Made by a program: the position numbers and the translations under genes. Below the pieces are notes generated by a model. The model did not search any database. It had not been told where the DNA came from and was given only the letters and a program-made list of their open reading frames with translations. From assembly GCA_910577845.1 (NCBI GenBank), contig CAJTNA010000001.1, positions 157,329 through 221,328 of the forward strand: a stretch of 64,000 nt of DNA. The letters run 5' to 3'. Position 1 is the stretch's first letter. Every line of letters starts with the position of its first letter. Positions 6,748 through 61,947 of this stretch are shown one piece after another. The stretch comes from an uncultured Christensenella sp. Lineage in GTDB: Bacteria > Bacillota > Clostridia > Christensenellales > UBA3700.

Positions 6748-8406
6748 TTATTCCTCGTCAGTCACATTTTGAGGTATTGTAATGTTGCTTACAATGTTAT
6801 CAAACTCCGCATTCCAATCTGGTTGACCAGCATTATCACCATTATCAATAACCACAGTATTAGGTGAGTCTGGTGGAGGTGTCAAATCGTCAATATCAAT
6901 TCTGTCAACACAATCATCGCCATTTGAAATAAAATCAGTAGTATTACCGCTTTTTGCAAGTTCAGCTTGCTTTTCCGCCTCAAGAGCATTCGCAACTGCA
7001 ATTGCCTCATCAACAGTTTTGCTTGCTTGCTTAATATTCCTAACTTCCTCACTTGTGATAGGAGTAAATTTAACCATACTTCCTTCCCACTTAAAGCTAA
7101 TCTTTCCACACGCACCACTACGATGTTTAACAATATGTAAATCAATAATATCGTCTGTAGTACTCTCTGATACCTTTTGTTTAATTAGGAAATAAACTTG
7201 GTCAGCGTCTTGCTCAATTGAACCAGACTCTCTCAAGTCGGACATCTTAGGGTCACCATCCTCACGTTTTTCAAGGTCACGTGAAGTTTGCGACAATGCA
7301 AGTACTGGAACATCCAATTCCTTAGCCATAATTTTCAGGCTTCTTGAAATCTCAGTAACTTCTTGTTGAATACTCTGTCTTGAGGTGTGAGCTTTAAGCA
7401 ATTGCAAGTAGTCAATTACAACTAAGTCAAGACGCTTTTTCATTTGTTTTAACCTACGGCATTTGCTCATAATTTGCTCTGGTGTAGTATTTGCTGTATC
7501 GTCAATATAAACATTAGAGGTTTCAAGCACCTTTTTGGCTTGCCATAACCTTTTAAATTCATCAGCTGAAGCACCAGTCATTACACTCTCGTGAGGTACG
7601 CTAGCCATTGTGAGCAAAATTCTTTGAGTAAGTTCACTTATGCTCATTTCCAAGTTGAATACAGCAACAACTTTTTCAGGCTCTTTCCTTGCTATATTAC
7701 AAACGATGTTCATTGCAAAAGAGGTCTTACCACAACCAGGACGTGCTGCCAAAATTATCATTTGACCGCCTTTATAGCCGTTTGTATATTTATCAAGGTT
7801 TTTAAAGTGTGATAATTGCCCTTTGTTACTATCTGGATTAGTAAGCACATCTTCATAACCTTTCAACACTTTGTTGATTGTATCATTTACGTGTACCAAA
7901 TCTTTATTTTCTTGATTATCAGATATATCAAAAATAGTCTTTTCTGCATAAGCAAGTGCCATATCTGAATCATCACTATTATAAGTATTCTCGCTGATTT
8001 TGTTAGACGCATTAATTATTGTTCTTAACATTCCATTCTTTTTTATAATATTAAAATAATATCTGTAATTAGCAGAAGATGGAATAATATTTGTAAGTTC
8101 AGTAAGATAAGACATACCACCAACTTTTTGTAAATTATCTGTTGTTGATACTCTACCACTCTTGTCAGCAGTTTTACTTTTAATCAATTTATCAGATAAC
8201 GTAATTATATCTACTGGCTTGCCTTCACGTTGCAATTCACACATTGCATTATATATCAACTTATGTGCTACAAAGTAAAAATCACTTTCTTTTAGTTCGC
8301 TTAGCACCTCAGTAGCCACAGTATCATCAATCAATATACTACCTAGCAATGATTGTTCCGCTTCATTATTATTAGGCAAAATCTTAGGATTTTTTATTTC
8401 GCTCAT
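6748..8406 (-). CDS. dnaB: Replicative DNA helicase (DnaB family) with C-terminal acidic extension
   Basis: N-terminal LPNNNEAEQSLLGSIL, Walker A ARPGCGKTSFAMN, Walker B VVIDYLQLL, and SQTSRDLE/SDLRESGSIEQDAD motifs. About 100 extra C-terminal residues. Confidence 0.9.
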   Translation of the reverse strand: MSEIKNPKILPNNNEAEQSLLGSILIDDTVATEVLSELKESDFYFVAHKLIYNAMCELQREGKPVDIITLSDKLIKSKTADKSGRVSTTDNLQKVGGMSYLTELTNIIPSSANYRYYFNIIKKNGMLRTIINASNKISENTYNSDDSDMALAYAEKTIFDISDNQENKDLVHVNDTINKVLKGYEDVLTNPDSNKGQLSHFKNLDKYTNGYKGGQMIILAARPGCGKTSFAMNIVCNIARKEPEKVVAVFNLEMSISELTQRILLTMASVPHESVMTGASADEFKRLWQAKKVLETSNVYIDDTANTTPEQIMSKCRRLKQMKKRLDLVVIDYLQLLKAHTSRQSIQQEVTEISRSLKIMAKELDVPVLALSQTSRDLEKREDGDPKMSDLRESGSIEQDADQVYFLIKQKVSESTTDDIIDLHIVKHRSGACGKISFKWEGSMVKFTPITSEEVRNIKQASKTVDEAIAVANALEAEKQAELAKSGNTTDFISNGDDCVDRIDIDDLTPPPDSPNTVVIDNGDNAGQPDWNAEFDNIVSNITIPQNVTDEE

Positions 8407-31380: not shown

Positions 31381-31408
31381 TGCGTTGACTTCGGTTGACG
31401 CATTTTTT
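31381..31408 (+). terminator. Intrinsic terminator between the structured element and the lipoprotein ORF
   Basis: 9-bp stem tgcgttgac-ttcg-gttgacgca (includes two G-U pairs) with a UUCG loop, followed by ttttttatttt. It lies 18 nt before the GGAGG RBS. Confidence 0.7.
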
Positions 31409-31425
31409 ATTTTACGGAGGTTTAT

Positions 31426-31926
31426 ATGAAAAAATTAGCAAGTTTTCTATTAATATTACTGTTTATGCTCACATTGGCTGGATGTGAGGCTGTTGATTGT
31501 GCAACTTGCAATGATACTCAAAAGATTGAATGTAATATATGCGACGGACTAGGTCAGGAAAAATGTGTTGTTTGCAATGGAAGCAGTAAGGTTGATTGTT
31601 TTTATTGTGACACCAGTGGAAGAGTTACTTGCTCTATATGTTTAGGTTTAGGTAAAAAAAATTGCACCTCTTGCAATGGTACTGGCTCAATAAAAACTTA
31701 CGATTCAAAAACTGGCAAATGGACTTATAAAACTTGCACTATATGCTCTGGTAGTGGGAGAAAGTTTTGTACATATTGCGGTGGGATGGGAACTAATAAG
31801 TGCACATGTTCATTAGGCAAAAGAAATTGTACTCAATGCACAAGTGGAAAAATTATTTGTGAAAATTGCAATGGAACAGGAAAGCAGAAATGCAAAGATT
31901 GTATAAAAAGAACGGAACTTTATTAA
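31426..31926 (+). CDS. Lipoprotein with about 11 CxxC motifs (DnaJ cysteine-rich-domain-like repeats)
   Basis: Signal peptide with lipobox LTLAGC. The mature part is almost entirely CxxCxGxG-like units (CNICDGLG, CVVCNGSS, CTSCNGTG, CTICSGSG, CTYCGGMG, CENCNGTG). Confidence 0.75.
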   Translation: MKKLASFLLILLFMLTLAGCEAVDCATCNDTQKIECNICDGLGQEKCVVCNGSSKVDCFYCDTSGRVTCSICLGLGKKNCTSCNGTGSIKTYDSKTGKWTYKTCTICSGSGRKFCTYCGGMGTNKCTCSLGKRNCTQCTSGKIICENCNGTGKQKCKDCIKRTELY

Positions 31927-32029
31927 CAAGGACATTTATATCCAATTTTATACATGAGAATAGAATAGTAAATTTAAATTAGGCGTAGAATATTCGATTT
32001 AGGTTTCAACCTTTCCGCCAATAATAAAT

Positions 32030-32070
32030 AATACGAACCCGTTTTAACAAAGTGGTTCGTATTATTTTTT
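32030..32070 (+). terminator. Intrinsic terminator
   Basis: aatacgaacc...ggttcgtatt followed by atttttt. It lies immediately after a partial copy of the tRNA-Ser 3' end. Confidence 0.7.
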
Positions 32071-32201
32071 GCTAAATTAAAAATTCAATTTTAAGTCTTA
32101 GTATTTATCTATGAAAGCGTGCAAACAGCACTATTCTCGTTTTATTTTATCAAACACGCACCATTACGTTATTACCAGTTGATTATACGGAAAATTGGGA
32201 C

Positions 32202-32549
32202 TTGTTTGAACGCCAAAATATGGCACAAAAAATCATTTCAGCAATAAATTTTGTTTCATCTGCTCTTGTGGCTGTGTTAGATAATTCAATTATAGGCTTT
32301 GAACTTTTAGGGAATTCTCTTTTTGGAAAAGATATGCAATATATTGATTTAGCTGAACTTTATGTTACTGAACCTTTCCGTAGATGTGGGATAGGTAAAA
32401 TGCTTTTTGAGCAAATATGTGTTAAGGCTAAACAATTTGGAGCAAAAAAGCTTTACATTTCAGCTCATTCAGCGGAGGAAAGTATAAACAGCAGAATAAA
32501 AAATCTATATACAACTATTAAATTACCCGTTGCAACAAACAACGGGTAA
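32202..32549 (+). pseudogene. GNAT acetyltransferase remnant
   Basis: Only the acetyl-CoA-binding core survives (RRCGIGKMLFE...AKKLYISAH). There is no proper N-terminus, since an upstream ATG is in another frame. The C-terminus runs into the terminator hairpin at 32523-32554. Confidence 0.55.
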
Positions 32550-32693
32550 TTTTTATCATATTTTAATAGTTTATTTTTTTCAAATCCTTAGATAATAAAT
32601 TATATTAAATTAATAGTTGATATGATAAATATTTTCAATAATATTATATCTTAATTTAAATAAAATTTTTAATTTAGCCATCAAAAAATAGTT

Positions 32694-33644
32694 TTAAAAT
32701 ACTTTATTCGCATTTTTCTTTAAATCATTATACTTTGCTCTACTCTCAATATCACCAAATAAAGTTGCTTGATTAATACCTAATTTATCAAGTTCGTCAA
32801 CAATTTTTTGTTTACATTGTTTTGGAATAACAAAACTATATATTTTATATTCATCGTTATTGTTGTACAATTCTGAATTTAGTCCAAATATAGCAAAAAG
32901 TCCATTTTGTTTTTGCAATCTATCATTATTTATTAATGGACGAACTATAAACGTACTAAAAATATCTTTTGGATTTGTTCTATAGTTCAAAAAAGCTGTT
33001 CGTTCTCTGCTAACTTCAGAAATATATTTTTGAAACACATTAACATTATTAGTTTTTAATTGCTTAATGCAGTCATTATCCAACTTTTGATTATTGTTAT
33101 CCAGCTGGTGTTCAAGAAATTTTGCCAACATATTTTTTTCTTCATCATCCAATTTAGCAAGGCACGACAACAACAATGCTCTGTCGCTTTCAAAAGATAA
33201 AATGTTCTTTTTGCGAGTGGCAATAACAAAAAACTGACCATCTTTTTCATCATGTTGATAACTTATTGTTTTAGTTGAATAATCTGCACTAGCAAACCAC
33301 AATGCAACTAGTGGATTAGTTGTCAAGTCTAACAATCTAGTCGGATATGTATAATGTTGCATTTTTGCTAATTGACTCAATGCGGATAAGCCAACAAATT
33401 CGTTTGGAAAATATGTTAAAGCATCAAAATAAGCCTCTTTTTCATTTGCATTTCTAAATACACTTGGTGTTAAACAAGTTTCATATATTTGCTTTTCTCC
33501 CCTGTAAAAGAAATTATAATTATTTTTATCAATTGAACTTTCATATTTATTTAAAAGCTTTAAAATGTTAGTATCACAAATAGGTTCGTTAATTTTTTTT
33601 ACAATACTTGACCAAGAATTTCTCATACCCAAATTATTTCTCAT
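32694..33644 (-). CDS. FRG domain-containing protein
   Basis: FFYRGE motif and AKMQHYTYPTRLLDLTTNPLVALWFA, the signature of the FRG domain family; 316 aa. Confidence 0.7.
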   Translation of the reverse strand: MRNNLGMRNSWSSIVKKINEPICDTNILKLLNKYESSIDKNNYNFFYRGEKQIYETCLTPSVFRNANEKEAYFDALTYFPNEFVGLSALSQLAKMQHYTYPTRLLDLTTNPLVALWFASADYSTKTISYQHDEKDGQFFVIATRKKNILSFESDRALLLSCLAKLDDEEKNMLAKFLEHQLDNNNQKLDNDCIKQLKTNNVNVFQKYISEVSRERTAFLNYRTNPKDIFSTFIVRPLINNDRLQKQNGLFAIFGLNSELYNNNDEYKIYSFVIPKQCKQKIVDELDKLGINQATLFGDIESRAKYNDLKKNANKVF

Positions 33645-33719
33645 TGGTTTCTCCTATAAATTCAAAACATTTTTTTTGTTATTGTACAACATCTCATATA
33701 AATATTAATATTCATTTTT

Positions 33720-34019
33720 TTAAGTAACTTTAAATATTTCCTTTGTATCTTTTTCATTGGCGTCTATAAAATCAATTAATAATCTTTCATTTGAATGTTG
33801 AGAAATAAAATCAAATATATCTTTATTCAAATTAAATATAGTGTCTTCTTCTATTTTTTCTATATCTGAAACTTTATTATTTTCTAAATCAAAACAAATA
33901 TAAATAAATTCGTCATCAAATTTCACATTTGATTCAATATAAAATTTACAACTATACTTTTTGTTCTCTACTATCATTTCTTTTACACTTCCGTAAAATT
34001 GCATTAAATTTTCCTCCAA
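33720..34019 (-). CDS. Hypothetical acidic protein (99 aa)
   Basis: ORF with a GGAGGA RBS, 75 nt upstream of the FRG gene on the same strand. No motif recognised. Confidence 0.5.
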   Translation of the reverse strand: MEENLMQFYGSVKEMIVENKKYSCKFYIESNVKFDDEFIYICFDLENNKVSDIEKIEEDTIFNLNKDIFDFISQHSNERLLIDFIDANEKDTKEIFKVT

Positions 34020-34150
34020 CTTTGTAAATCTTCCTAATTATTAAATATTTAAATTTAATAATTTTAATATATCATTTATATTTGAATTTGTCAATAGTTA
34101 AAAAAAATTCTAGCTTTCACTTTTATTAGAACAAATAATATAGTGCATAT

Positions 34151-34179
34151 TTGACAATTGTATACTTTTTTGATATAAT
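34151..34179 (+). promoter_or_regulatory. Consensus sigma-A promoter with no adjacent gene
   Basis: TTGACA, 17-nt spacer, tgaTATAAT, followed by the palindrome ttgataaatatcaa (34185-34198). The next annotated ORF starts about 450 nt downstream. Confidence 0.6.
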
Positions 34180-34636
34180 TATTTTGATAAATATCAAATG
34201 AAAATATAGAAAAATAGATAATTTTTATTGAAAAAATTATTAAATCAATGAATATGTTGCACATATTGTTGCAAAGTGCCATTGATGTAATGATGACCGT
34301 GAATTACAAAACTGGTATATGAAATATTGCTATATATAAAAATTTAATTATTGATAATTTTTTTATAGTAGCGATTTGTTGGTGAAATACTTCCAAATTT
34401 TATTAATTACTGATTCCATATTGCAATATATGGTGATTACTCAAAATATACTAGTAAACCTCTAAAAAACTTTATTTATAAAAGTAATAATAGTCACGAT
34501 ATATTTTTTATGATAATTTAAATAAAGCTATTGAAAAACTATATTTTAAAATTCAAAAGCAAACTAGTCTGCTTAAATTTATATTGAATTTAACAAACTA
34601 TAAACGAACACGATTTAATGAGGTTATTTTGACTAT

Positions 34637-35239
34637 ATGAAAAATACAAAATTGTTTATTTTAGCTATATGCACTATATTGGTTTTAGTTTTGTTAAGTT
34701 TTATATTATACATATTCATTCTGACACCTAAAGCTGACAAAATAAAAAGCAATGATTTACCAAATAGCTACTTTATATCGCAATTTACTTACATTGATTA
34801 TCAAGAACATAATGATTGCTCTGCTTACGCAACTGCATATGTTTTGCGATATTTAGGTGAAAATATAAAAGGCACAGAACTTTATTCTCAAATGAAACGG
34901 AATTTTTCAATTATGACAGCTCATAGCATTGTAAAAGCTGTCAAAAATCGGGGCTATTCTGCAAAAGCTTATCACGGAAGTATTGATTCATTAAAACAAA
35001 GACTCACCCAAGGCACGCCAATAATTTGTTTTATACGCAATCAAAATGATACTCATTATGTTGTAGTAGTTGGTTATGACAATGATTACATTTATATGGT
35101 TGATTCTATCAAAAATAATGCCAATGTGGAAGTGACAAATTTATTTAATCGTAAAGAAAGCATAGCTGACTTTGAAATGTTGTGGAACACAAATTTATAC
35201 TTTGTAAACAATATTTTTATAATTATAAATAATTGCTAA
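34637..35239 (+). CDS. Membrane-anchored peptidase C39-like (C39_2) cysteine protease
   Basis: N-terminal TM helix, catalytic Cys context HNDCSAYATAYVLRYLG and His context THYVVVVGYD. Confidence 0.7.
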   Translation: MKNTKLFILAICTILVLVLLSFILYIFILTPKADKIKSNDLPNSYFISQFTYIDYQEHNDCSAYATAYVLRYLGENIKGTELYSQMKRNFSIMTAHSIVKAVKNRGYSAKAYHGSIDSLKQRLTQGTPIICFIRNQNDTHYVVVVGYDNDYIYMVDSIKNNANVEVTNLFNRKESIADFEMLWNTNLYFVNNIFIIINNC

Positions 35240-35386
35240 AATACACATTTTACAAAATAATGAATACTATTTAGCTTTTATTCTCAAAATAATACAACTT
35301 ATAGCGAGGTAGTGTATTGATTATACTTTAAATGAAAATACAAATTAATAAAGCAAGATATTATTAAGTATACGACAAAAAATCCA

Positions 35387-35881
35387 GTGCAAATTGTTTG
35401 TGAAATGATGAAAAAAGATTTTATTAATATTCACGGACCAGAACATCATTTTTTAGATGGTGCAGTGTTTTTAGTCGCATATAACAATGCTGTGGGAAAA
35501 ATTGATATTGACAAAAGTTTGGATACACTTGAGAAACGTACTATAAATATGCCTGGTGCTATGTGTGCATATTGGGGCGTTTGCGGTGCTGTAGCTTCTG
35601 TTGCATCGGCTTTGTCAATAGTACACGGGACTCAACCTTTGAGTACAGATGAATATTATAAACATAATATGGAATATACATCTGTTGTTTTAAACAAAAT
35701 GAGTAAAATCGGCGGAGCTCGTTGCTGTAAACGCAATGCTTTTCTTTCACTATCATACGCAGTAGAATTTGTAAAAGAAAAATACAATGTTCATATGGAA
35801 TGTGAAAATCCTCAATGTGATTTTTCCGCAAAAAATGCTCAATGTCTAAATTTAAAATGTCCGTTTTATAAACAACAATGA
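35387..35881 (+). CDS. Cys-rich hypothetical protein (possibly DUF5714-like)
   Basis: HGPEHH motif, MCAYWGVCGAV, and a C-terminal cysteine cluster (CENPQCDF...CLNLKCPFY). GTG start with no clear RBS. Confidence 0.4.
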   Translation: MQIVCEMMKKDFINIHGPEHHFLDGAVFLVAYNNAVGKIDIDKSLDTLEKRTINMPGAMCAYWGVCGAVASVASALSIVHGTQPLSTDEYYKHNMEYTSVVLNKMSKIGGARCCKRNAFLSLSYAVEFVKEKYNVHMECENPQCDFSAKNAQCLNLKCPFYKQQ

Positions 35882-35992
35882 TTAGATATTTTAATTAAGA
35901 CAGGTGTATGTTCCAATTAATAAACATAATTCTATAAATACTTGTTACAAAAGTTAATAGCTTACAAATACCCTAGGAGATATAACTATTTT

Positions 35993-36163
35993 ATGAATTG
36001 GTTTAACTATTACGGTCTCATAATTGTTGCAATTATGATGATACTTAATATCGTTTATGCAATTGTTTTTAAAGACAATAACGATATTAAATATAACAAT
36101 AAAATAGCAGTAATTTTAGAACAAATAGGTAGATATGCTTGGAATGACGTGGTTGTTAGATAA
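35993..36163 (+). pseudogene. N-terminal fragment of a membrane protein
   Basis: MNWFNYYGLIIVAIMMILNIVYAI...LEQIGRYA resembles the start of a conserved Firmicute membrane protein, but it stops after about 56 aa and runs into an unrelated remnant. Confidence 0.45.
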
Positions 36164-36335
36164 TAAAAATAACATTGTTTGACATAATGGAGCAACAACA
36201 GATTTTAATAGCTATATTGGTTTTACAAAAGACAAACAAAAAGGTGTTGCAATTTTAAGCAATCTAAGTCCTAATGAAAAAGTCTCTATGACAATAATTG
36301 ATGTAAAAATTTTAACTAGTAATGCTACTTTTTAA
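36138..36335 (+). pseudogene. C-terminal remnant of a beta-lactamase-family serine hydrolase
   Basis: Hand translation: LGMTWLLDNKNNIV*HNGATTDFNSYIGFTKDKQKGVAILSNL... This is the typical HxG.t.Gf.s...v.iLsN tail. In-frame TGA at 36180-36182 where a Trp is expected. No N-terminal part is present. Confidence 0.6.
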
Positions 36336-36389
36336 AAGTTTAAAAGACAAAAGGTATAAATAATATTTTTATAAAAGGATAAAGTACTT

Positions 36390-36803
36390 ATGGATAAATC
36401 ACAAATTTTGCAATTCATATCTCAACAAAAAACAGCTTTTATTGGTTCTGTAAATGAACAAGGTTACCCAGTTATTAGGGCTATGCTTGCACCTCGCAAA
36501 ATAGACGGAAATGAAATTTATTTTTCCACAAATACTTCCTCAAACAAAATAAAGCAATATTTGGAAAATAACAAGGCTTGTGTATATTTTTATAAACGTG
36601 GCAAATTTAAATATCAAGGTGTTTCAATAATAGGTGAAATGCAAGTTTGTACTGACCAAGCGACAAAAGACGAGATTTGGCGATTTGGTGATAGCTTGTT
36701 TTATAAACAAGGCGTAACTGACCCAGATTATTGTGTTTTAAAATTTAAATGTATATCTGCAGAATATTATTGTGATTTTAAAATAGAAAAAATTGAGTTT
36801 TAA
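36390..36803 (+). CDS. Pyridoxamine 5'-phosphate oxidase family (FMN-binding split barrel) protein
   Basis: 137 aa with the pattern of general-stress-protein-26-like PNPOx proteins (GYPVIRAM..., YFSTNTSSNKIKQ). Confidence 0.7.
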   Translation: MDKSQILQFISQQKTAFIGSVNEQGYPVIRAMLAPRKIDGNEIYFSTNTSSNKIKQYLENNKACVYFYKRGKFKYQGVSIIGEMQVCTDQATKDEIWRFGDSLFYKQGVTDPDYCVLKFKCISAEYYCDFKIEKIEF

Positions 36804-36976
36804 ATTTTGATTTGTTTAAAAAATCAACTTTTATTGTTTTATTAATTTTCAGCTTACTACAATAATGGTTATTATATTTTAAATTATCACTACTCTATTA
36901 TAAATACATATTACGAACTATAAAAAATTAATGGTTCGTTTTGTTATTATAGTTATAATGATAAAATTTAAATAAC

Positions 36977-37005
36977 TTGATTTTAAACTTTTAAAATGAT
37001 ATAAT
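36977..37005 (+). promoter_or_regulatory. Promoter giving a probable leaderless mRNA for the GrpB gene
   Basis: TTGATT, 17-nt spacer, tgaTATAAT. The -10 element ends 6 nt before the ATG at 37012 and there is no SD. Confidence 0.55.
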
Positions 37006-37011
37006 TAATTT

Positions 37012-37569
37012 ATGAAAAAATTAGACGAAATGACGCTTGAAGAGCTTTGGCAATTATTCCCTATCATCTTAGCCGAACACAATCCAAATTGGAGAATTTG
37101 GTACAATGAGGAAATTGTAAATTTAAAAGGAATTTTACATAAAGGCATAGAATATTATCATATAGGCAGTACTGCAATAAAAGAAATTTGGGCAAAACCT
37201 ATAATAGATATTTTAATTGTTGTAAATGTTAAAAGCGAAATCGCACAAATTGCAAAGCGGTTACAAGATAACGATTATATAATAATGTCACAGAGCAGTA
37301 ATAGGATATCTCTTAACAAAGGTTATACTCAAAATGGTTTTTCGGAAAAAGTTTTTCATTTGCACATAAGATTAAAAGATGATATTGATGAACTATACTT
37401 TTGCAAGTATTTGAATGAGCATTTTGAGGTTGCAAAAGAATATGAAAAATTAAAATTACAACTATGGAAAGAGTTTGAGCATAATAGAGATGGTTACACT
37501 ACTGCCAAAACGGAATTTATAAAAAAATATACTCTTTTAGCAAAAGAATTTTATTGCACATTTAATTAA
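37012..37569 (+). CDS. GrpB/UPF0157 family protein
   Basis: HIGSTAI...AKPIIDILIVV and HLHIR motifs. Confidence 0.75.
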   Translation: MKKLDEMTLEELWQLFPIILAEHNPNWRIWYNEEIVNLKGILHKGIEYYHIGSTAIKEIWAKPIIDILIVVNVKSEIAQIAKRLQDNDYIIMSQSSNRISLNKGYTQNGFSEKVFHLHIRLKDDIDELYFCKYLNEHFEVAKEYEKLKLQLWKEFEHNRDGYTTAKTEFIKKYTLLAKEFYCTFN

Positions 37570-37687
37570 TAATAATTTAATTTGTTTTATTTTGGCAAAT
37601 TAACTATAATAAAATTATTGTGTTTATAGATTACCTAATTATATAATTACTATGTACAACTAAATACCAATTATGAGGTGTTATTTA

Positions 37688-38575
37688 ATGAGAAAGAATT
37701 TAATTGATAAAGAGGATTTAATTGACATTGAAGAAGATAAGGACTTGTATGATTTCCAACTTGATGATGAATATGATTGGAATACAGACGAAGACTTGGA
37801 CGCAAAATATGAATTGACAGAAGAGCTTATTTATGGTAGCAAAGAAGCTAAACAAATAGTTAAAGATACATATGCAAATTTTGACTTTGTTTATGGCAAA
37901 TACTACCCTAATGGCTTAAAAAGTAATTTTGAAAGGTTTATTTTATTGCTTGTTAAAGCATTAATGTTAGTAGGCAGTATTTTTGGTATTGTATTTTGCA
38001 CCATAATAAATCCATTGTATTTACAAGCAATTCCTTTTTTCGGTATAATTGTAATGGTAGGTATAATCCATTATTTTTTACAAGAGGAAATAAGAGAGGT
38101 TTGGTGGTTCAAGTGGAACGGCAAAACAGTAACAATATATAAAATCCTTAACAGAAATGGTAAAAATAATCTAATAGTTTATATCAATAAAAATTATGAT
38201 TGGATATACAATGTAAATAAGAAAAAATGGAAAGCAAATAGAAAATATAGTTGTATGGACAGCAGACTACTATTTAAATATTTAACTGGTTTTCTTTTTA
38301 TTGATAAAAAAGATTATGATGAAGTTGAAGTTTATGCTTGCAATAATGATAGTCTTTATGGCGGAAAAACATCTAAATTCAAGTCCTGCTCCTTAACATT
38401 AAAAAGAGGTATACCAAAACATATTACCAAGTGGACTAGCAATGTAAGTGAGAGATTTGAATTTTTGGAAGTTAATTCAAACAAGTGTGCTGAAATACCA
38501 AAATCTTTTATAGAATTTTGCGAACAAGAAGGAATTGAGTATCCAGAAGAAAACGAACATTTACATTATGTTTAA
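37688..38575 (+). CDS. Hypothetical membrane protein (acidic N-terminus, two TM segments, basic C-terminal domain)
   Basis: ORF with a GAGGTG RBS, which lies inside the longer track ORF that starts at 37673. No family recognised. Confidence 0.5.
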   Translation: MRKNLIDKEDLIDIEEDKDLYDFQLDDEYDWNTDEDLDAKYELTEELIYGSKEAKQIVKDTYANFDFVYGKYYPNGLKSNFERFILLLVKALMLVGSIFGIVFCTIINPLYLQAIPFFGIIVMVGIIHYFLQEEIREVWWFKWNGKTVTIYKILNRNGKNNLIVYINKNYDWIYNVNKKKWKANRKYSCMDSRLLFKYLTGFLFIDKKDYDEVEVYACNNDSLYGGKTSKFKSCSLTLKRGIPKHITKWTSNVSERFEFLEVNSNKCAEIPKSFIEFCEQEGIEYPEENEHLHYV

Positions 38576-38697
38576 TGGTTAGTCATTAATGAAATTATAT
38601 GCTAATTAGCCAATCCAATTTTAAATAAACTTTTAAGCATACGGCAATAAAATTCAAAGCTTATGCAAAATTAAAGGTATAATTATAGTAGGAATAT

Positions 38698-39087
38698 ATG
38701 TACAGATTTATTAATTTAAATAATCATAACGATTACTTAAAAATATTAAACATTTTGGAGCAAAAAACTAAATTTATTGAATATGTTTTGATAGATACAA
38801 ATAACACTACTCTTGTTGATTTTATACCAGAAAATATTTACTCACAAAAAAAATCTAATGCTTGGTGGGGTACTAGTACTAGCCAGTCTTGTGAGATATA
38901 TAAAATTATTGCAACTAATAATCTTTTTAGTAAACTTAGAAAGTTTAAAACCTTTTGTATTTTAAACACCACTGAATATGGTGACATCGTGGAAATTACT
39001 GATTTTGGAATAAATGATATAGCTTTTTTTGATAATAAAAGCGAACCTTTATTGTCACAACTACTCACGAGGGATACATTAGTTTAA
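38698..39087 (+). CDS. Hypothetical protein (129 aa)
   Basis: ORF with a TATAAT promoter and an AGGAA RBS upstream. No family recognised. Confidence 0.45.
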   Translation: MYRFINLNNHNDYLKILNILEQKTKFIEYVLIDTNNTTLVDFIPENIYSQKKSNAWWGTSTSQSCEIYKIIATNNLFSKLRKFKTFCILNTTEYGDIVEITDFGINDIAFFDNKSEPLLSQLLTRDTLV

Positions 39088-39140
39088 GAAATGATATAGA
39101 CTTTTAACTTTTTATAACATAACAATTTGATTTTATAAAT

Positions 39141-39167
39141 AAAATAGTTGATTTTCAACTATTTTTT
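39141..39167 (+). terminator. Intrinsic terminator
   Basis: Perfect 11-bp stem aaaatagttga-ttt-tcaactatttt followed by a T run. Confidence 0.7.
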
Positions 39168-39218
39168 GTGTTTTTGAGATATTATGTATTTGTTTTGGAT
39201 TTTGTCATTAGTTTAACA

Positions 39219-39247
39219 TTGACAAAAGTTTTTATTTATGGTAAAAT
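39219..39247 (+). promoter_or_regulatory. Promoter giving a probable leaderless mRNA for the 4TM protein
   Basis: TTGACA, 17-nt spacer, tggTAAAAT. The -10 element ends 7 nt before the ATG at 39255 and there is no SD. The promoter lies inside the longer GTG-started track ORF. Confidence 0.55.
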
Positions 39248-39254
39248 ATTACCT

Positions 39255-40493
39255 ATGAAACAAAACAAATTCGTACAACTTCAAAATGATAATGTAGCTA
39301 TTACTTATTTAAGAGCAAGCCACCATTGTTTACAAAAGGAAAAATACATCAAATATTTGATGATATTTTTATCTTTTGGCATTTGTCTTGCTGCTATTTT
39401 TAATAGATACTTGCCTCAAATGATGCCAAAAGCAGATAACGCAGAAGCTATTCAACAAATAGTTGCAACCGTTATCAATTTGATTTCTGGTGTAATATTA
39501 GTTGTTGGATTGGTGCTTGGTTTTTATGTTTCTCGTATGCATACTGAAGGCACTGTACTGCGTGATAAATACGAATCTTATGTGTTTGGAACACTTAATC
39601 CCTCCATACTCAGACCTATTTCTCAAACAATGGTAGAAGAATATGCTAGAAGGACTAAACGTATCCCGGACGAACATTTTAAAAACTTTCTTTATGGTGA
39701 AAATGACGACCCAAAAATTGCAACTGCTCAATTTGAATACATTTGTAAAGAAGTTCATTCTGATTATAAGCTTTATCTTTCAATTCAACCATTCTTTTTA
39801 ACTATTTGGATTGGTTTTTGCGTACTTATAATTTTAATTGCAATTAGTTTTAATGATACTTTTGTTACCACTCTAATCAATATTTTGATACCATCTTTAT
39901 CTGCAATAACTACGATTGGTAATTCTTGGTATGGCTGTAGACTACAAATGCGACAACTACAAAATTTGATTAACATTACAGACCAAATTAATAAATTGTC
40001 TGAAAGCAAAAAAATGCAATATATTACTGACGAAAAAAATATGCGAATGCTCGCAGATGGTCTTTTTAATTATCGTTCAAGTGCGTTTGTAATTCCAAAT
40101 TTTCTTGAAAAAAGATTTACTAAACACTCCAACCTTGAAAAGAAAGCAAATGCTAGTGTAAAAGTAAATTCAAATGAAAATATGCTAGTTAAAAATAATT
40201 CAGCTAAAAAGCCTAACAATTATAGCAATTCAAACAAAACTACTCAAACAAAAACAACCAACCAAAATAAACAAGTTACAAATGGCAAGCAAAACAGCCA
40301 AGTTAAAGTAACTAACCAAAATAAAAGTAGCAATCAAAACAAACCTAAAACTATTGTAAACAAACCTTTGAATCAAATTCCTAAGCACCCTACTACTGCA
40401 AAAAGTCAAATTGTTCAAAAGCCAAAGAATTACAATAACCAACAAGCAAAAAAGACTAACCCAACGAAAGTTACAACTTACAAGAGTAAATAA
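39255..40493 (+). CDS. 4-TM membrane protein resembling S-4TM/SLATT-type effectors, with an N/Q/K/T-rich tail
   Basis: Two TM hairpins (about residues 35-95 and 180-235) separated by a soluble insert (GTVLRDKYESYVFG...). The C-terminal ~110 aa are low complexity (NQNK repeats). Confidence 0.4.
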   Translation: MKQNKFVQLQNDNVAITYLRASHHCLQKEKYIKYLMIFLSFGICLAAIFNRYLPQMMPKADNAEAIQQIVATVINLISGVILVVGLVLGFYVSRMHTEGTVLRDKYESYVFGTLNPSILRPISQTMVEEYARRTKRIPDEHFKNFLYGENDDPKIATAQFEYICKEVHSDYKLYLSIQPFFLTIWIGFCVLIILIAISFNDTFVTTLINILIPSLSAITTIGNSWYGCRLQMRQLQNLINITDQINKLSESKKMQYITDEKNMRMLADGLFNYRSSAFVIPNFLEKRFTKHSNLEKKANASVKVNSNENMLVKNNSAKKPNNYSNSNKTTQTKTTNQNKQVTNGKQNSQVKVTNQNKSSNQNKPKTIVNKPLNQIPKHPTTAKSQIVQKPKNYNNQQAKKTNPTKVTTYKSK

Positions 40494-40600
40494 AAAGTGA
40501 ATTAATAACACTAAATCATTTTAAAAGCCACTAGTAATCTAGTAGCTTTATTTTGATTAATATTAAATAATTAGTTAATTAAAACAAGAATGATAAAAAA

Positions 40601-57217: not shown

Positions 57218-57833
57218 ATGTTGCAATTTGGAATGCCAACTTTGATAGAAAATCACACTTTGGAAGATAATATACATTTATGCCAAAATCTTGGATTAAA
57301 ATTTATTGAGTTAAATATGAATTTTCCTAAATACCAATTAAAAAATCTTGCAGATACAAAAAAAATTTTTGATTTAGCAAGTAAAGCTGGCATATACTAC
57401 ACTATTCATTTAGATGAAAATGTTTACATTTATGGCTTCAATTTATTTGTAAGCAAAGCATATTTACGAACTATTAAAAAAACTATATCAATTGCAAAAA
57501 AATTACTGCCCTTACAAAATAGATTTGGCAACCAAAGTATGCCATTTGTAATTAATATGCATATGAATCACGGAGTTTATATGACATTACCTAAAGAAAA
57601 TATATATGTATGAAAGAAATCTTAATATGTATTTAGATTGCTGTAAACAATTCCGCTCTTTATGTGAAAAATGGATTGGTAATGCAAACATAATAATAAC
57701 CATTGAAAACACTGATGGCTTCCTTGAATATGAAAAAACCTCAATTGACTATTTGTTAGAAAGTCCAAAATTCGGTTTAACTTGGGATATTGGACATTCC
57801 AAAGCAATAGGTGAAACAGATGTACAGATATAA
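57218..57833 (+). pseudogene. Frameshifted, C-terminally truncated sugar phosphate isomerase/epimerase (xylose isomerase-like TIM barrel)
   Basis: Two overlapping ORFs (57218-57613 and 57606-57833) join across the atatatatg tract. The combined ~206 aa is short for the family. Confidence 0.65.
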
Positions 57834-59097: not shown

Positions 59098-59296
59098 TTA
59101 TACCTCCTAATATTTATGCAACTTAAATTGTACATAAAATCAAATACTTTGGACTAATATTAATTACTAATTAAAGTAACTCACATTATCCAATATTATT
59201 ATACCACTAAACAACAAAAAAGTAAATACTTGCCGATTAAAATAAAACCTTATTAAATTTATTTGATTTTTTATCAAAAATAAGGTAAAATTAATA

Positions 59297-59345
59297 TGTA
59301 AAAAGTTTTAATCAAATTAATAATATAAAAGCATATTGACTAAAG
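59297..59345 (+). repeat. Copy B of the ~47-nt direct repeat, upstream of tRNA-Ser(GGA)
   Basis: tgtaaaaagttttaatcaaattaataatataaaagcatattgactaaa. Confidence 0.7.
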
Positions 59346-59417
59346 TATTTACCTAACAGATTAATATTCAAAATTATGTATAATTTAAACTTTAAATTTT
59401 AAATAAAAAATCATTAT

Positions 59418-59508
59418 AGAGAGGTCTCCTAGTTTGGCTTATGGAGCACGATTGGAAATCGTGTAATGTTGATAGCATTCGAGGGTTCAAATCCCTTCCT
59501 CTCTGCCA
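59418..59508 (+). tRNA. tRNA-Ser (anticodon GGA), CCA encoded
   Basis: Acceptor agagagg/cctctct, anticodon stem cacga/tcgtg with loop ttGGAaa, a long variable arm and T-arm gagggttcaaatccctt. Confidence 0.85.
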
Positions 59509-59747
59509 TAATATTTCAAATACGAACACTTGCTACTATTTATTTAAATATAGGGTATTTGGAATTTTTATAAAAGGTCAACTTTATTGTTGGCTTTTTT
59601 ATATTTAAAAGCTAATAGCATAAAAAACAATTTAATACTCAATAAACTAAAACTGAGAGTTCACATTAGAATTCTCAGCTTTAGAGGTATTAATTTATTT
59701 ATTTTAATTAACTTTACATAAATTAGTTAATTTTACCTAATGCAAAT

Positions 59748-60905
59748 TTACTCAATTTCATTGTTATTTTTATCAAGCTTTCCATCAGTGCAAATTACTA
59801 TGAACTCACTAGAATTTTTATTCCAATTAGATTCTTTTGTTATTGCAATCCATTCAGCTTTTGCCCCAGCATAAGTTATAGTTTCAAGACTAGTGCAATC
59901 TTCAAACGCAGATACACCAATCCCCTTGATTTTATTTCCTAGTTTTAGCGTTTTAAGTTTTTTACATCCATTAAACATCTGCCAACCAATATTTGTCATA
60001 TTTTCACTTAAAATAACACTTTCAAGATTTATGCAATTTTCAAATGCATAACTTTCAATTTTAGTTACGCTATCAGGAATTATAACAGAAGTAAGACTGC
60101 TACACTCAGAAAAAGCTGACTCACCAATAGTTTTTACACTGTTAGAAATTGTGATTGAAGTAAGAGTGCTACACTTCATTAATGCATACTTATCAATCGA
60201 ATCACCGCCATTAATAACAAGTGTTTTTAGATTTATATGTGGTATACTGCTAATTGCTGTTGTTGGCATAGTAGCAGTTGATATATTACTGCAATTTGAA
60301 AATGTAGATTTGCCAATAGTAATTACAGTATTTGGAATTGTAATACTTGTTATACTAGTGCAATTATTGAATGCATAATTATTAATAGTTGCAATGTCGT
60401 TTGGAATAACCAAATCAGTAACCAACTCACCATTTAAATATAAATTTTTTGCAGTGGCAATTGGGCTTGCATCTTGATTTTCAAAATTAATTGTGCAATA
60501 CGCAGATAAATCTTTGATATTAACTTTTTCAAGACTAGTGCAACCAAAAAACGCAGAGTTACCAATATTTATTAAATTTTTTGGAAGTGTAACACTTGTT
60601 AGTTTTGTGCATTCAAAAAAAGCTTCACTTTTAATGCTAACTACTGGTTTTTCGTTATAAGTTTCTGGGATAACTACTTCTGTTATATTTTCTTTTTCAG
60701 CATCTAGTTTTAATGAAACAGAATATCCACCATCTACCTCAACATACTCCAAAATTTCTGCAACAATATTTCCACCATTACCATCATTCTCACTGCCATT
60801 GTCCTTATCATCATTGTTATTGCCACCACAAGCAACTAGCACAAATGACAAACAACAAATTAATAAAACTATAAAAATAGTAAATAAAACCTTTGATTTT
60901 TTCAT
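59748..60905 (-). CDS. BspA-type leucine-rich repeat (LRR_5) surface lipoprotein
   Basis: Signal peptide with lipobox LVAC. Repeated units of the form ...IP..V..IG..AF..C..L.SI.I. Confidence 0.85.
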   Translation of the reverse strand: MKKSKVLFTIFIVLLICCLSFVLVACGGNNNDDKDNGSENDGNGGNIVAEILEYVEVDGGYSVSLKLDAEKENITEVVIPETYNEKPVVSIKSEAFFECTKLTSVTLPKNLINIGNSAFFGCTSLEKVNIKDLSAYCTINFENQDASPIATAKNLYLNGELVTDLVIPNDIATINNYAFNNCTSITSITIPNTVITIGKSTFSNCSNISTATMPTTAISSIPHINLKTLVINGGDSIDKYALMKCSTLTSITISNSVKTIGESAFSECSSLTSVIIPDSVTKIESYAFENCINLESVILSENMTNIGWQMFNGCKKLKTLKLGNKIKGIGVSAFEDCTSLETITYAGAKAEWIAITKESNWNKNSSEFIVICTDGKLDKNNNEIE

Positions 60906-60953
60906 TTTTTACTCCTTATTTTATTTGTTTTTGATTAATAATTTTTTTCATTT

Positions 60954-61118
60954 TGTTCATCAAATAATACAATTGATGAATATTTTATATTTATATTATA
61001 ACTTTTTTTGTAAAATTTGTCAATATTAAATTGAATTATTTTCTATGTTGTGACTATTGCCGTACAAAATGCTACTGTATGACAAAATATGTTCATCAAT
61101 TGTATTAATTGATGAACA
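60954..61118 (-). promoter_or_regulatory. Candidate invertible promoter: 30-nt inverted repeats flanking a consensus promoter
   Basis: IR-L 60954-60983 and IR-R 61089-61118 match at 28 of 30 positions in inverted orientation. Between them, on the minus strand, lies TTGACA (61018-61023), a 17-nt spacer and TATAAT (60995-61000), pointing at the LRR gene. Confidence 0.6.
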
Positions 61119-61173
61119 TTTTTATCTAATAACAAATTGATTTAAATTGCAATTTAGTATCGATTTTCGGTGG

Positions 61174-61947
61174 TTAATCTTGATTTTGGCAAGTGAATTG
61201 TGTGCCAAAATCAAGATACCTACATATGTAGTATTTTTTCTCAATGGACAAATCTTTACCCGTTAAGTATAGTTTGATTTGCAAATAACTAGAATTTTCA
61301 AAATTGTTTTTATTTATAATATATTTTGTACGCTTTACTACACCATCAATATTGCTGAATATTTGACAATTGGGGAATAATTTTTTTAGTTCTGGAACTA
61401 CAAAATTATAATGTGTACAACCAATTACTACTCCCTCAATGTTTGTATATTTTTTTAAACTTTCTGTTAAAAAGTCATAGATTATTTTTTTATTTTCGTA
61501 ATTATTTTCCACCATATTAGCAAGACAAGACATATCTGGAAAATAAAAATTTTTATTTGTATTATTATGTATCATATCTACTACTCTATCCGATTTTAAA
61601 GTGGCTGGAGTTGCAAGTAATAAGATATTATCGCACTTCAATGTTGCTGGTTTTATTGGTGGCTCTACACCTACAATAGGAATATTATCAAACATTAATC
61701 GCAACTTATCTATTGCTCTACTTGTTAAAGTATTGCAAGCAATTATAATTATATTAACACCAATATCCAATAGTTTTTTCATATTACTATAACCGATTGC
61801 AACTAATTCACTTTCACTTTTTGAGCCATAAGGGTGATATTTATTATCATATAAATAATGATATTCTGCATTAACATTATTTTCTATTAACCCTTTTAAT
61901 ACACTGAGTCCACCCATACCGCTATCAATCAAACCTATTTTTAACAT
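61174..61947 (-). CDS. murI: Glutamate racemase
   Basis: IGLIDSGMGGLSV, ACNT and GCTHY catalytic cysteine motifs. The start is probably the ATG at 61947; the track ORF begins at TTG 61983. Confidence 0.9.
   Translation of the reverse strand: MLKIGLIDSGMGGLSVLKGLIENNVNAEYHYLYDNKYHPYGSKSESELVAIGYSNMKKLLDIGVNIIIIACNTLTSRAIDKLRLMFDNIPIVGVEPPIKPATLKCDNILLLATPATLKSDRVVDMIHNNTNKNFYFPDMSCLANMVENNYENKKIIYDFLTESLKKYTNIEGVVIGCTHYNFVVPELKKLFPNCQIFSNIDGVVKRTKYIINKNNFENSSYLQIKLYLTGKDLSIEKKYYICRYLDFGTQFTCQNQD

Follow-up and report, generated by a model that had tools for sequence, protein, structure and literature searches.

A 105-bp invertible segment with a predicted promoter between murI and an LRR lipoprotein gene in uncultured gut Clostridia

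Between murI and a gene for an LRR lipoprotein, in a 64-kb stretch of DNA from an uncultured bacterium (the whole of which is referred to here as the window), two inverted repeats enclose a short segment that holds a perfect match to a promoter consensus. In the window this match points towards the lipoprotein gene, an arrangement that we call ON; in the flipped arrangement, which we call OFF, it points towards murI. The locus therefore raises the question of whether the segment does flip, as a preliminary description of this DNA had predicted for positions 60984-61088, and whether flipping could turn a surface protein on and off.

The window has a G+C content of about 30% and contains the sporulation genes gpr and YqfD, which identifies the source as an uncultured gut bacterium of the Clostridia that forms spores. 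The closest GTDB representative genome is L060, whose MurI is 94% identical to that of the window. The features of the locus are collected in Table 1. The gene that the preliminary description had called, an LRR lipoprotein gene with its own AAGGAG ribosome-binding site, was recovered as an ORF with an LRR_5 domain and a lipobox, and the N-terminus of its translation, MKKSKVLFTIFIVLLICCLSFVLVAC, is a signal peptide with that lipobox. The AAGGAG motif is kept in all of the relatives that we compared. The spacer between murI and the LRR gene is 268 bp long and contains both repeats. In L061-L065, where MurI is 68-71% identical, neither the LRR gene nor the switch was present 3' of murI.

Table 1. 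Coordinates of the switch and its neighbouring genes in the window, and the intact loci found in each orientation
Feature	Position	Strand	Basis and remarks
LRR lipoprotein gene (regulated)	59748..60905	-	385 aa; lipobox LVAC; Pfam PF13306 LRR_5, BspA-type
RBS AAGGAG of LRR gene	60912..60917	-	6 nt 5' of ATG (ATG at 60905)
IR-B, LRR-proximal inversion site	60953..60983	.	Repeat finder; haplotype alignment; in the ON-state 5' leader of the LRR mRNA
Invertible segment, ON in the window (promoter toward LRR gene)	60984..61088	-	105 bp; flipped in relatives
Predicted sigma-70-type promoter	60995..61023	-	TTGACA 61023-61018, 17-nt spacer, TATAAT 61000-60995; 12/12 consensus
IR-A, murI-proximal inversion site	61089..61119	.	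Repeat finder; inversion breakpoint in relatives
murI, glutamate racemase, upstream neighbour	61174..61947	-	257-aa gene call; Pfam Asp_Glu_race; homologues
ON loci (promoter toward LRR)			Window/L140, L149, L150, L151
OFF loci (promoter toward murI)			L141, L059, L152-L157, L056, L057, L060, L146, L159

The preliminary description had reported 30-nt repeats at 60954-60983 and 61089-61118 that are reverse complements at 28 of 30 positions, and both a repeat finder and a motif search reproduced them. The repeat finder placed the arms at 60954-60986 and 61086-61118 (33 nt, 91% complementary, 99 nt apart), and this pair, IR-A and IR-B, was the top-ranked inverted repeat within 1.5 kb across the whole 64-kb window. 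Both 30-mers match TGTTCATCAAWTAATACAATTGATGAAYAT without mismatch, one on each strand; at up to three mismatches these were the only two matches to TGTTCATCAAWTAATACAATTGATGAAYAT in the window, and none was obtained in 100 shuffles. Each repeat is also a hairpin on its own. The two are 91% identical when compared in inverted orientation and 79% when compared directly, and the asymmetric centre agrees at 8 of 9 positions inverted as against 3 of 9 direct. We conclude that IR-A and IR-B are true inverted repeats despite being hairpins, as had been claimed.

Read on the murI strand, IR-A is ATGTTCATCAAT-TAATACA-ATTGATGAACAT, that is, palindromic arms of 12 nt around an asymmetric 7-bp centre, and the reverse complement of IR-B is TTGTTCATCAAA-TAATACA-ATTGATGAATAT, with the same centre between imperfect arms. 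Among four haplotypes the centre was always the same in both sites of any one genome and variable among genomes, being TAATACA in the window and L056 and TAATATA in L060 and genomes of the L059/L141/L150 type, and the arms tolerated differences between IR-A and IR-B. Within a site, the arms co-vary symmetrically: the innermost arm bases of L060 are altered in both sites from CAAT...ATTG to CAAA...TTTG, and GTAC...GTAC is found in IR-B of both L056 and L060. In the outer arms IR-A has CAATT where IR-B has CAAAT, and this difference remains with its flank in ON and OFF genomes alike, so that strand exchange must occur inward of that position. Symmetric arms, a matched asymmetric centre and the inverted placement of the two sites would fit the architecture of a recombinase core site.

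Switch-type sites were described by the pattern GTWCATCAAWTAATAYAWTTGATGWAC. There was no second copy of the full site motif in the window at up to three mismatches, and a scan of 185,579 GTDB representative genomes with a 27-nt site gave no match, although the pattern used missed the diverged centre of L060. That scan brought up no other family of sites, and there is no regulon of sites that would indicate a dedicated recombinase. Across metagenomes the 21-nt core CATCAAWTAATACAATTGATG was matched 53 times, never with the flanking arms; all were isolated matches in unrelated organisms, due to chance or to coding sequence. A search of the switch against Rfam returned nothing except a sub-threshold chance match of the hairpin to a microRNA.

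Exact look-ups of the LRR and MurI proteins of the window returned the source contig only, identical contexts being collapsed, and more assemblies were reached by way of rpsT and of proteins in the same cluster as the LRR protein. We found 17 intact loci, the window included, between colinear murI and LRR flanks. Four of them are ON and 13 OFF, an orientation bias towards OFF; two of the ON loci, L149 and that of the window, agree at 100% and may stem from one sample. The segments of relatives are 90-97% identical to that of the window only after reverse-complementing, and 61.5% identical in the same orientation. Thus L056, which has colinear flanks with a MurI 99% and an LRR protein 82% identical at the amino-acid level, has a segment that matches at 90.5% when reversed and at 61.5% otherwise; in L059, whose LRR gene is 98.9% identical at the nucleotide level, the reversed segment matches at 96.3%, and that of the GTDB representative L060 likewise matches when reversed.

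The same allele can be found in both states. The LRR allele P0157 was ON in two samples (SRR20747170 and SRR32404264) and OFF in at least three (SRR35536347, SRR13008697 and SRR15422852), and the ON and OFF copies have no mismatch in the 105-nt flipped segment and none in the 1,390 nt that run from IR-B to the end of the gene. Both states were moreover seen in each of two backgrounds: with the centre TAATACA the window is ON and L156 and L157 are OFF, and with the centre TAATATA L150 and L151 are ON and L152-L155, L141 and L059 are OFF. Two backgrounds, each with both states, require at least two independent flips, essentially without point substitutions. We conclude that the 105-bp segment inverts and that the switch is real, as the preliminary description had foreseen.

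Such a conclusion would fail if the opposite orientations were artefacts of short-read assembly at inverted repeats, a concern raised by the fact that the comparison contigs are mostly k=31 Logan assemblies, many of which break exactly at IR-A. However, IR-A and IR-B differ at arm positions less than 20 nt from the segment, so that 31-mers tie each flank to one particular segment end, and when a k=31 de Bruijn graph was simulated from one orientation alone there was no branch at the switch, which means that the orientation is not an assembly ambiguity. The OFF state was also found in SPAdes-style contigs of 154-338 kb and in MAGs, and the source contig of 255 kb, scaffold_18 of ENA assembly ERZ28596011, is ON. 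Eleven short Logan contigs do terminate within either repeat, but the offsets of the breaks (+4 in OFF, +1 in ON and, on the murI side, -4 in L148) correspond, state by state, to where the palindrome ends, and simulated hairpin fold-back chimeras reproduced all three offsets. Since fold-back chimeras explain the breaks in IR-A, such breaks are not evidence of mixed orientation, and we regard an assembly artefact as a scarcely credible source of the two orientations.

The Logan contigs that stop within IR-A (the equivalent of 61089-61119) are L059, L148 and L150-L155, from eight samples. Contig ends within the repeats (L057-L059, L148 and L150-L155) were considered as branches arising from mixed orientations, and this was rejected by simulation: a pure mixture of ON and OFF predicts a start at offset +1 in both states, together with breaks in IR-B. 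The branch predicted for an ON and OFF mixture, in an L056-type strain, is matched by L058 alone, whose start lies 5 nt into IR-B, and the start of L057 is one base off the prediction for a two-strain mixture. Caution is needed more generally, as contig breaks at palindromic sites do not by themselves indicate inversion or mixed orientations.

The invertible segment contains no ORF. The minus-strand TTGACA, 17-nt spacer and TATAAT that had been described in it were found at all 12 of 12 consensus positions, a promoter call that is a consensus match within AT-rich DNA. This TTGACA-17-TATAAT arrangement was invariant in all four haplotypes, the flanks being 89-99% identical. When the switch is ON, 90 nt separate it from the ATG of the LRR gene; in the OFF locus L141 it is found on the opposite strand. 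In a promoter scan, the segment held the sole strong promoter for the LRR gene, and the matches that point towards this gene in the OFF state were weaker and promoter-like, at 10/12. Transcription is predicted to start near 60988, a few bases before IR-B.

A terminator scan scored IR-A as an intrinsic terminator on both strands. On the murI strand its RNA hairpin has a folding energy of -20 kcal/mol (z -7.2) and is followed by a T-rich tail in either state of the switch, and on the opposite strand the hairpin, at -15.9 kcal/mol, is followed by TTTTTATC, a U tract. IR-B on the mRNA strand folds at only -6.8 kcal/mol (z -1.7) and is followed by an A-rich tract with no U tract, so that read-through to the ribosome-binding site would be expected. 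Judging from these predicted structures, IR-A probably terminates murI and insulates it from the flipped promoter. The preliminary description had named, as a case that would speak against it, a right-hand hairpin acting only as the murI terminator; IR-A is indeed terminator-like, but not only that, as it is also a boundary of the inversion.

The absence of a recombinase from the window, also claimed beforehand, held up. When Hin, XerD and FimB were compared by phmmer with all ORFs of the window, L060, L056 and L001, the best E-value was 0.3, and the best match to Hin in the window was likewise at E = 0.3. A Pfam search of the 10 window ORFs that were unrecognised by eye found no recombinase (the families were FRG, S_4TM, GNAT, DUF2461, YqfD, PhoH, Peptidase_C39 and GrpB), the remaining ORFs having been screened by phmmer and by eye. 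For the genes called in the neighbouring 10 kb on either side of the window, the listed Pfam families included no recombinase, and one protein of 773 amino acids had no Pfam family. No recombinase was thus found in the approximately 84 kb that surround the switch. Serine invertases exchange strands at a central dinucleotide, and a centre with an odd number of base pairs, such as seven, suits tyrosine recombinases better; we infer from the asymmetric 7-bp centre that an enzyme of the tyrosine type is likelier here than one of the serine type. There is precedent for a distant recombinase in Clostridioides difficile, in which recV lies away from cwpV (PMC2784873); several dispersed sites are acted on by RecV, and likewise by Mpi of Bacteroides (PMC5903667).

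Our preferred reading, to which we would attach a probability of roughly 0.8, is that the locus is an inverton, in which an invertible promoter turns a surface-exposed LRR lipoprotein on and off. According to this model the two inverted 31-bp sites flank 105 bp that bear the only strong promoter of the LRR gene, and a recombinase encoded elsewhere, more likely of the tyrosine type given a centre that is 7 bp and asymmetric, would bind the palindromic arms and exchange strands within the identical 7-bp centres, so that the segment flips. In the ON state transcription would begin just before IR-B and read through the weak hairpin to the ribosome-binding site and the gene. After a flip to OFF the promoter would face murI, and its transcript would at once meet the IR-A hairpin and U tract and probably be terminated, leaving the LRR lipoprotein gene without a promoter. 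IR-A would terminate murI in both states, and switching would presumably also take place within a single clonal population.

A deletion of 1,046 bp at the same locus was seen in five assemblies (L142 at 7959-8336, L143, L144, L145 and L147), corresponding to about 60070-61106 of the window, with flanks that are 99.3-99.5% identical to those of the window. It joins the 13-nt outer palindromic arm of IR-A, ending in ATGTTCATCAATT, to the interior of the LRR gene, starting with GGTAGTTATGC. Lost with it are the promoter segment, IR-B and roughly three quarters of the LRR gene, of which a remnant ORF of 83 amino acids stays. The left junction falls exactly at the end of the palindromic arm, and the microhomology at the junction is only 4 nt (AATT). 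The deletion may be an aberrant product of the recombinase or the result of illegitimate recombination.

An inverton is not the only way to account for these sequences. The repeats might be mainly hairpins, serving as the murI terminator and as a leader structure, between which inversions arise by accident through homologous recombination or template switching, with no enzyme and no regulatory role. It would suit this explanation that IR-A is terminator-like on both strands with a strong fold, that no recombinase is found in about 84 kb, that the majority of loci are OFF and that the deletion junction, with nothing more than 4 nt of microhomology, resembles illegitimate recombination. However, at least two independent flips with no substitution in about 1.5 kb are too frequent for chance events between imperfect 31-bp repeats, and the perfect promoter in the segment stays invariant. 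The centre, moreover, is located in the loop of the hairpin and is free of any pairing constraint, yet it is matched between the two sites and variable among genomes; centres that match within a genome and vary among genomes are the pattern needed for strand exchange by a recombinase. We consider accidental inversion unlikely, though it is the least improbable of the alternatives.

Dyad-symmetric sites could also be the operators of a dimeric repressor that forms a loop, the inversion being incidental to this. The palindromic arms of 12-13 nt and their symmetric co-variation (GTAC...GTAC in IR-B of L056 and L060, CAAA...TTTG in L060) would suit the binding of a dimer, but a recombinase dimer accounts for the same arm symmetry, a repressor has no need of identical, inverted, asymmetric centres, and the flips that were observed would be left unexplained. 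As a replacement for the switch such operators are very improbable; operator sites could coexist with it. Even less probable, and about on a level with the assembly artefact, is the insertion, either way round in different strains, of a miniature mobile element whose terminal inverted repeats are 31 bp long. The 167-bp unit with its terminal inverted repeats is MITE-like in outline, and the LRR gene and switch are missing 3' of murI where MurI is about 70% identical. Against a mobile element, the boundaries are base-identical in ON and OFF loci and the outer arms stay fixed to their flanks; there is no target-site duplication and no second copy in the window; the full site is unmatched in the GTDB representatives, and all 53 core matches in metagenomes are armless. 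Nor was an empty site seen, the sole variant being the deletion, which also takes about three quarters of the gene.

Within the inverton reading, a more far-reaching interpretation joins the several roles of the repeats. IR-A might serve at one and the same time as a complete core site for the recombinase, as the terminator of the essential murI gene and as the terminator of transcripts from the flipped promoter, with IR-B in the leader kept non-terminating; cleavage at the boundary between the 13-nt arm and the centre would also have set the left junction of a recurrent 1,046-bp deletion by which many strains lose the promoter and most of the gene for good, and the recombinase would then cause loss of the antigen in a reversible as well as an irreversible way. 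This combined proposal is speculative, and we think it more doubtful than not that all of its parts hold together. If it were true, the recombination sites would be working parts of a self-insulating switch and not mere boundaries.

The LRR lipoprotein (window 59748-60905 compared with L056:2339-3490) has an amino-acid identity of 82%, as against 99% for the adjacent MurI. In the deletion strains, 118 of 120 bases of the LRR remnant past the junction match the L056-type allele, and the remnant is 94% identical to the window; window-like flanks (99.4-99.9% identical) together with an L056-type remnant make the locus a mosaic. Diversifying selection appears to act on the LRR locus. Three kinds of variation, namely promoter flipping, a strongly diverged allele and a shared deletion, together suggest that the LRR protein is subject to strong, fluctuating selection. 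BspA-type LRR lipoproteins are a class linked to adhesion and host interaction.

These findings add a population-validated invertible segment with a putative promoter in an uncultured, low-GC lineage of gut Clostridia (MAGs labelled 'uncultured Christensenella sp.'). They illustrate that public assemblies can prove an inverton without reads. The clean arm-centre-arm sites, with a centre that co-varies naturally, also offer a ready substrate for finding the cognate recombinase.

Several other observations were made in the neighbourhood of the switch. A perfect 15-nt inverted repeat, ATCTTGATTTTGGCA and TGCCAAAATCAAGAT with an 11-nt loop, lies at 61177-61217 in the final codons of murI before the stop; the portion of it that is visible in relatives, GCCAAAATCAAGAT, is unchanged in L056 and has one base altered in L060. 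Another ORF replaces the LRR gene 3' of murI in L062 (from 6914), L063 (from 6906), L064 (from 6907) and L065 (from 7028). It starts with MITITYEELFDY..YRGH..GR.SKRDKKPL, an N-terminus that we take to resemble those of retron- or DGR-type reverse transcriptases. On the other side of the LRR gene, a tRNA-Ser(GGA) at 59418-59508 (+) is convergent with it (region 59098-59747), and the distance from the LRR gene to the next gene (80 aa) is 650 nt in the window compared with about 1,080 nt in L141, L150 and L156, which implies that strains differ by an indel of about 430 bp next to the tRNA.

Further away, two overlapping ORFs (131 and 75 aa) occupy 57218-57833, where L146 has a single AP_endonuc_2 gene of 279 amino acids, for a xylose-isomerase-like TIM barrel; the gene is probably frameshifted in the window strain. 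The stretch from 31400 to 40500 is low in GC, at about 26%, and codes for an FRG-domain protein (32694-33644), a Peptidase_C39-like protein (34637-35239), GrpB, a protein with a SMODS-associated 4TM effector domain (39168-40493) and two ORFs without a Pfam family; this stretch may be an island of defence or accessory genes.

It remains to place the switch among known systems. Invertons are defined by inverted repeats of about 10-40 nt that flank a short intergenic segment (PMC11892184), and they are reported to be widespread, including in Clostridia-like Firmicutes, for which a median of three per genome was found (PMC11892184, PMC11602134). The present locus has 31-nt sites (33 nt, 91% complementary) on either side of 105 bp, and both orientations, four ON and 13 OFF, occur between unchanged flanks. 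It differs from the classic invertons in four respects, namely its long and fully palindromic sites, the apparent doubling of one site as a terminator, the lack of a nearby recombinase and the lack of a known second pair of sites. Hin- and Gin-type systems have the invertase gene in or next to the segment, and here there is no ORF in the 105 bp and no serine recombinase was found in the window. A MITE is likewise a poor match, the unit being single-copy in the window with no full-site match in the GTDB representatives and unduplicated flanks. In loxP, FRT and dif, inverted arms of about 12-13 bp surround a short asymmetric centre that sets polarity and must match that of the partner site, and two inverted sites give inversion; the likeness to these is one of arm-centre-arm architecture only, as there is no similarity in sequence.

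Among gut commensals, close counterparts are the invertible promoters of Bacteroides, such as those of the polysaccharide loci inverted by Mpi, in which repeats of 10-40 nt bound promoter-bearing segments 5' of surface-structure genes and many sites can be served in trans by one recombinase (PMC11892184, PMC5903667). The sites there share a motif across many loci of one genome, and Mpi belongs to the serine recombinases (PMC5903667). Unlike these, the present system has a single known pair of sites, with an asymmetric 7-bp centre that would suit a tyrosine recombinase better. The cwpV switch of C. difficile (Cdi1) shares with ours its occurrence in the Clostridia and imperfect inverted repeats just 5' of the start codon of a surface-protein gene; phase variation of that protein, a recombinase encoded at a distance (RecV in C. 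difficile) and the involvement of an intrinsic terminator in the OFF state would be further common features (PMC2784873, PMC5903667). In cwpV, however, the promoter lies outside a 195-bp segment bounded by 21-bp repeats, and the OFF state results from a terminator formed in the transcript (PMC2784873). Here, by contrast, the sole strong promoter that was predicted is part of the segment and turns with it, and the predicted terminator is one of the recombination sites.

The repeats of fim are 9 bp long and the fim segment is 314 bp. In fimS of Escherichia coli the promoter for a surface structure sits on a short segment with an inverted repeat at either end, so that the structure is ON or OFF according to orientation, and the genes for FimB and FimE are in the fim locus (PMC2784873). 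Our switch differs from it in having 31-bp sites with palindromic arms, a segment of 105 bp and no recombinase within about 84 kb. The two are alike in that the promoter for a surface-structure gene is carried within a short invertible segment, and, judged by this layout, the switch is functionally of the fim type, with its putative promoter inside the segment that inverts.
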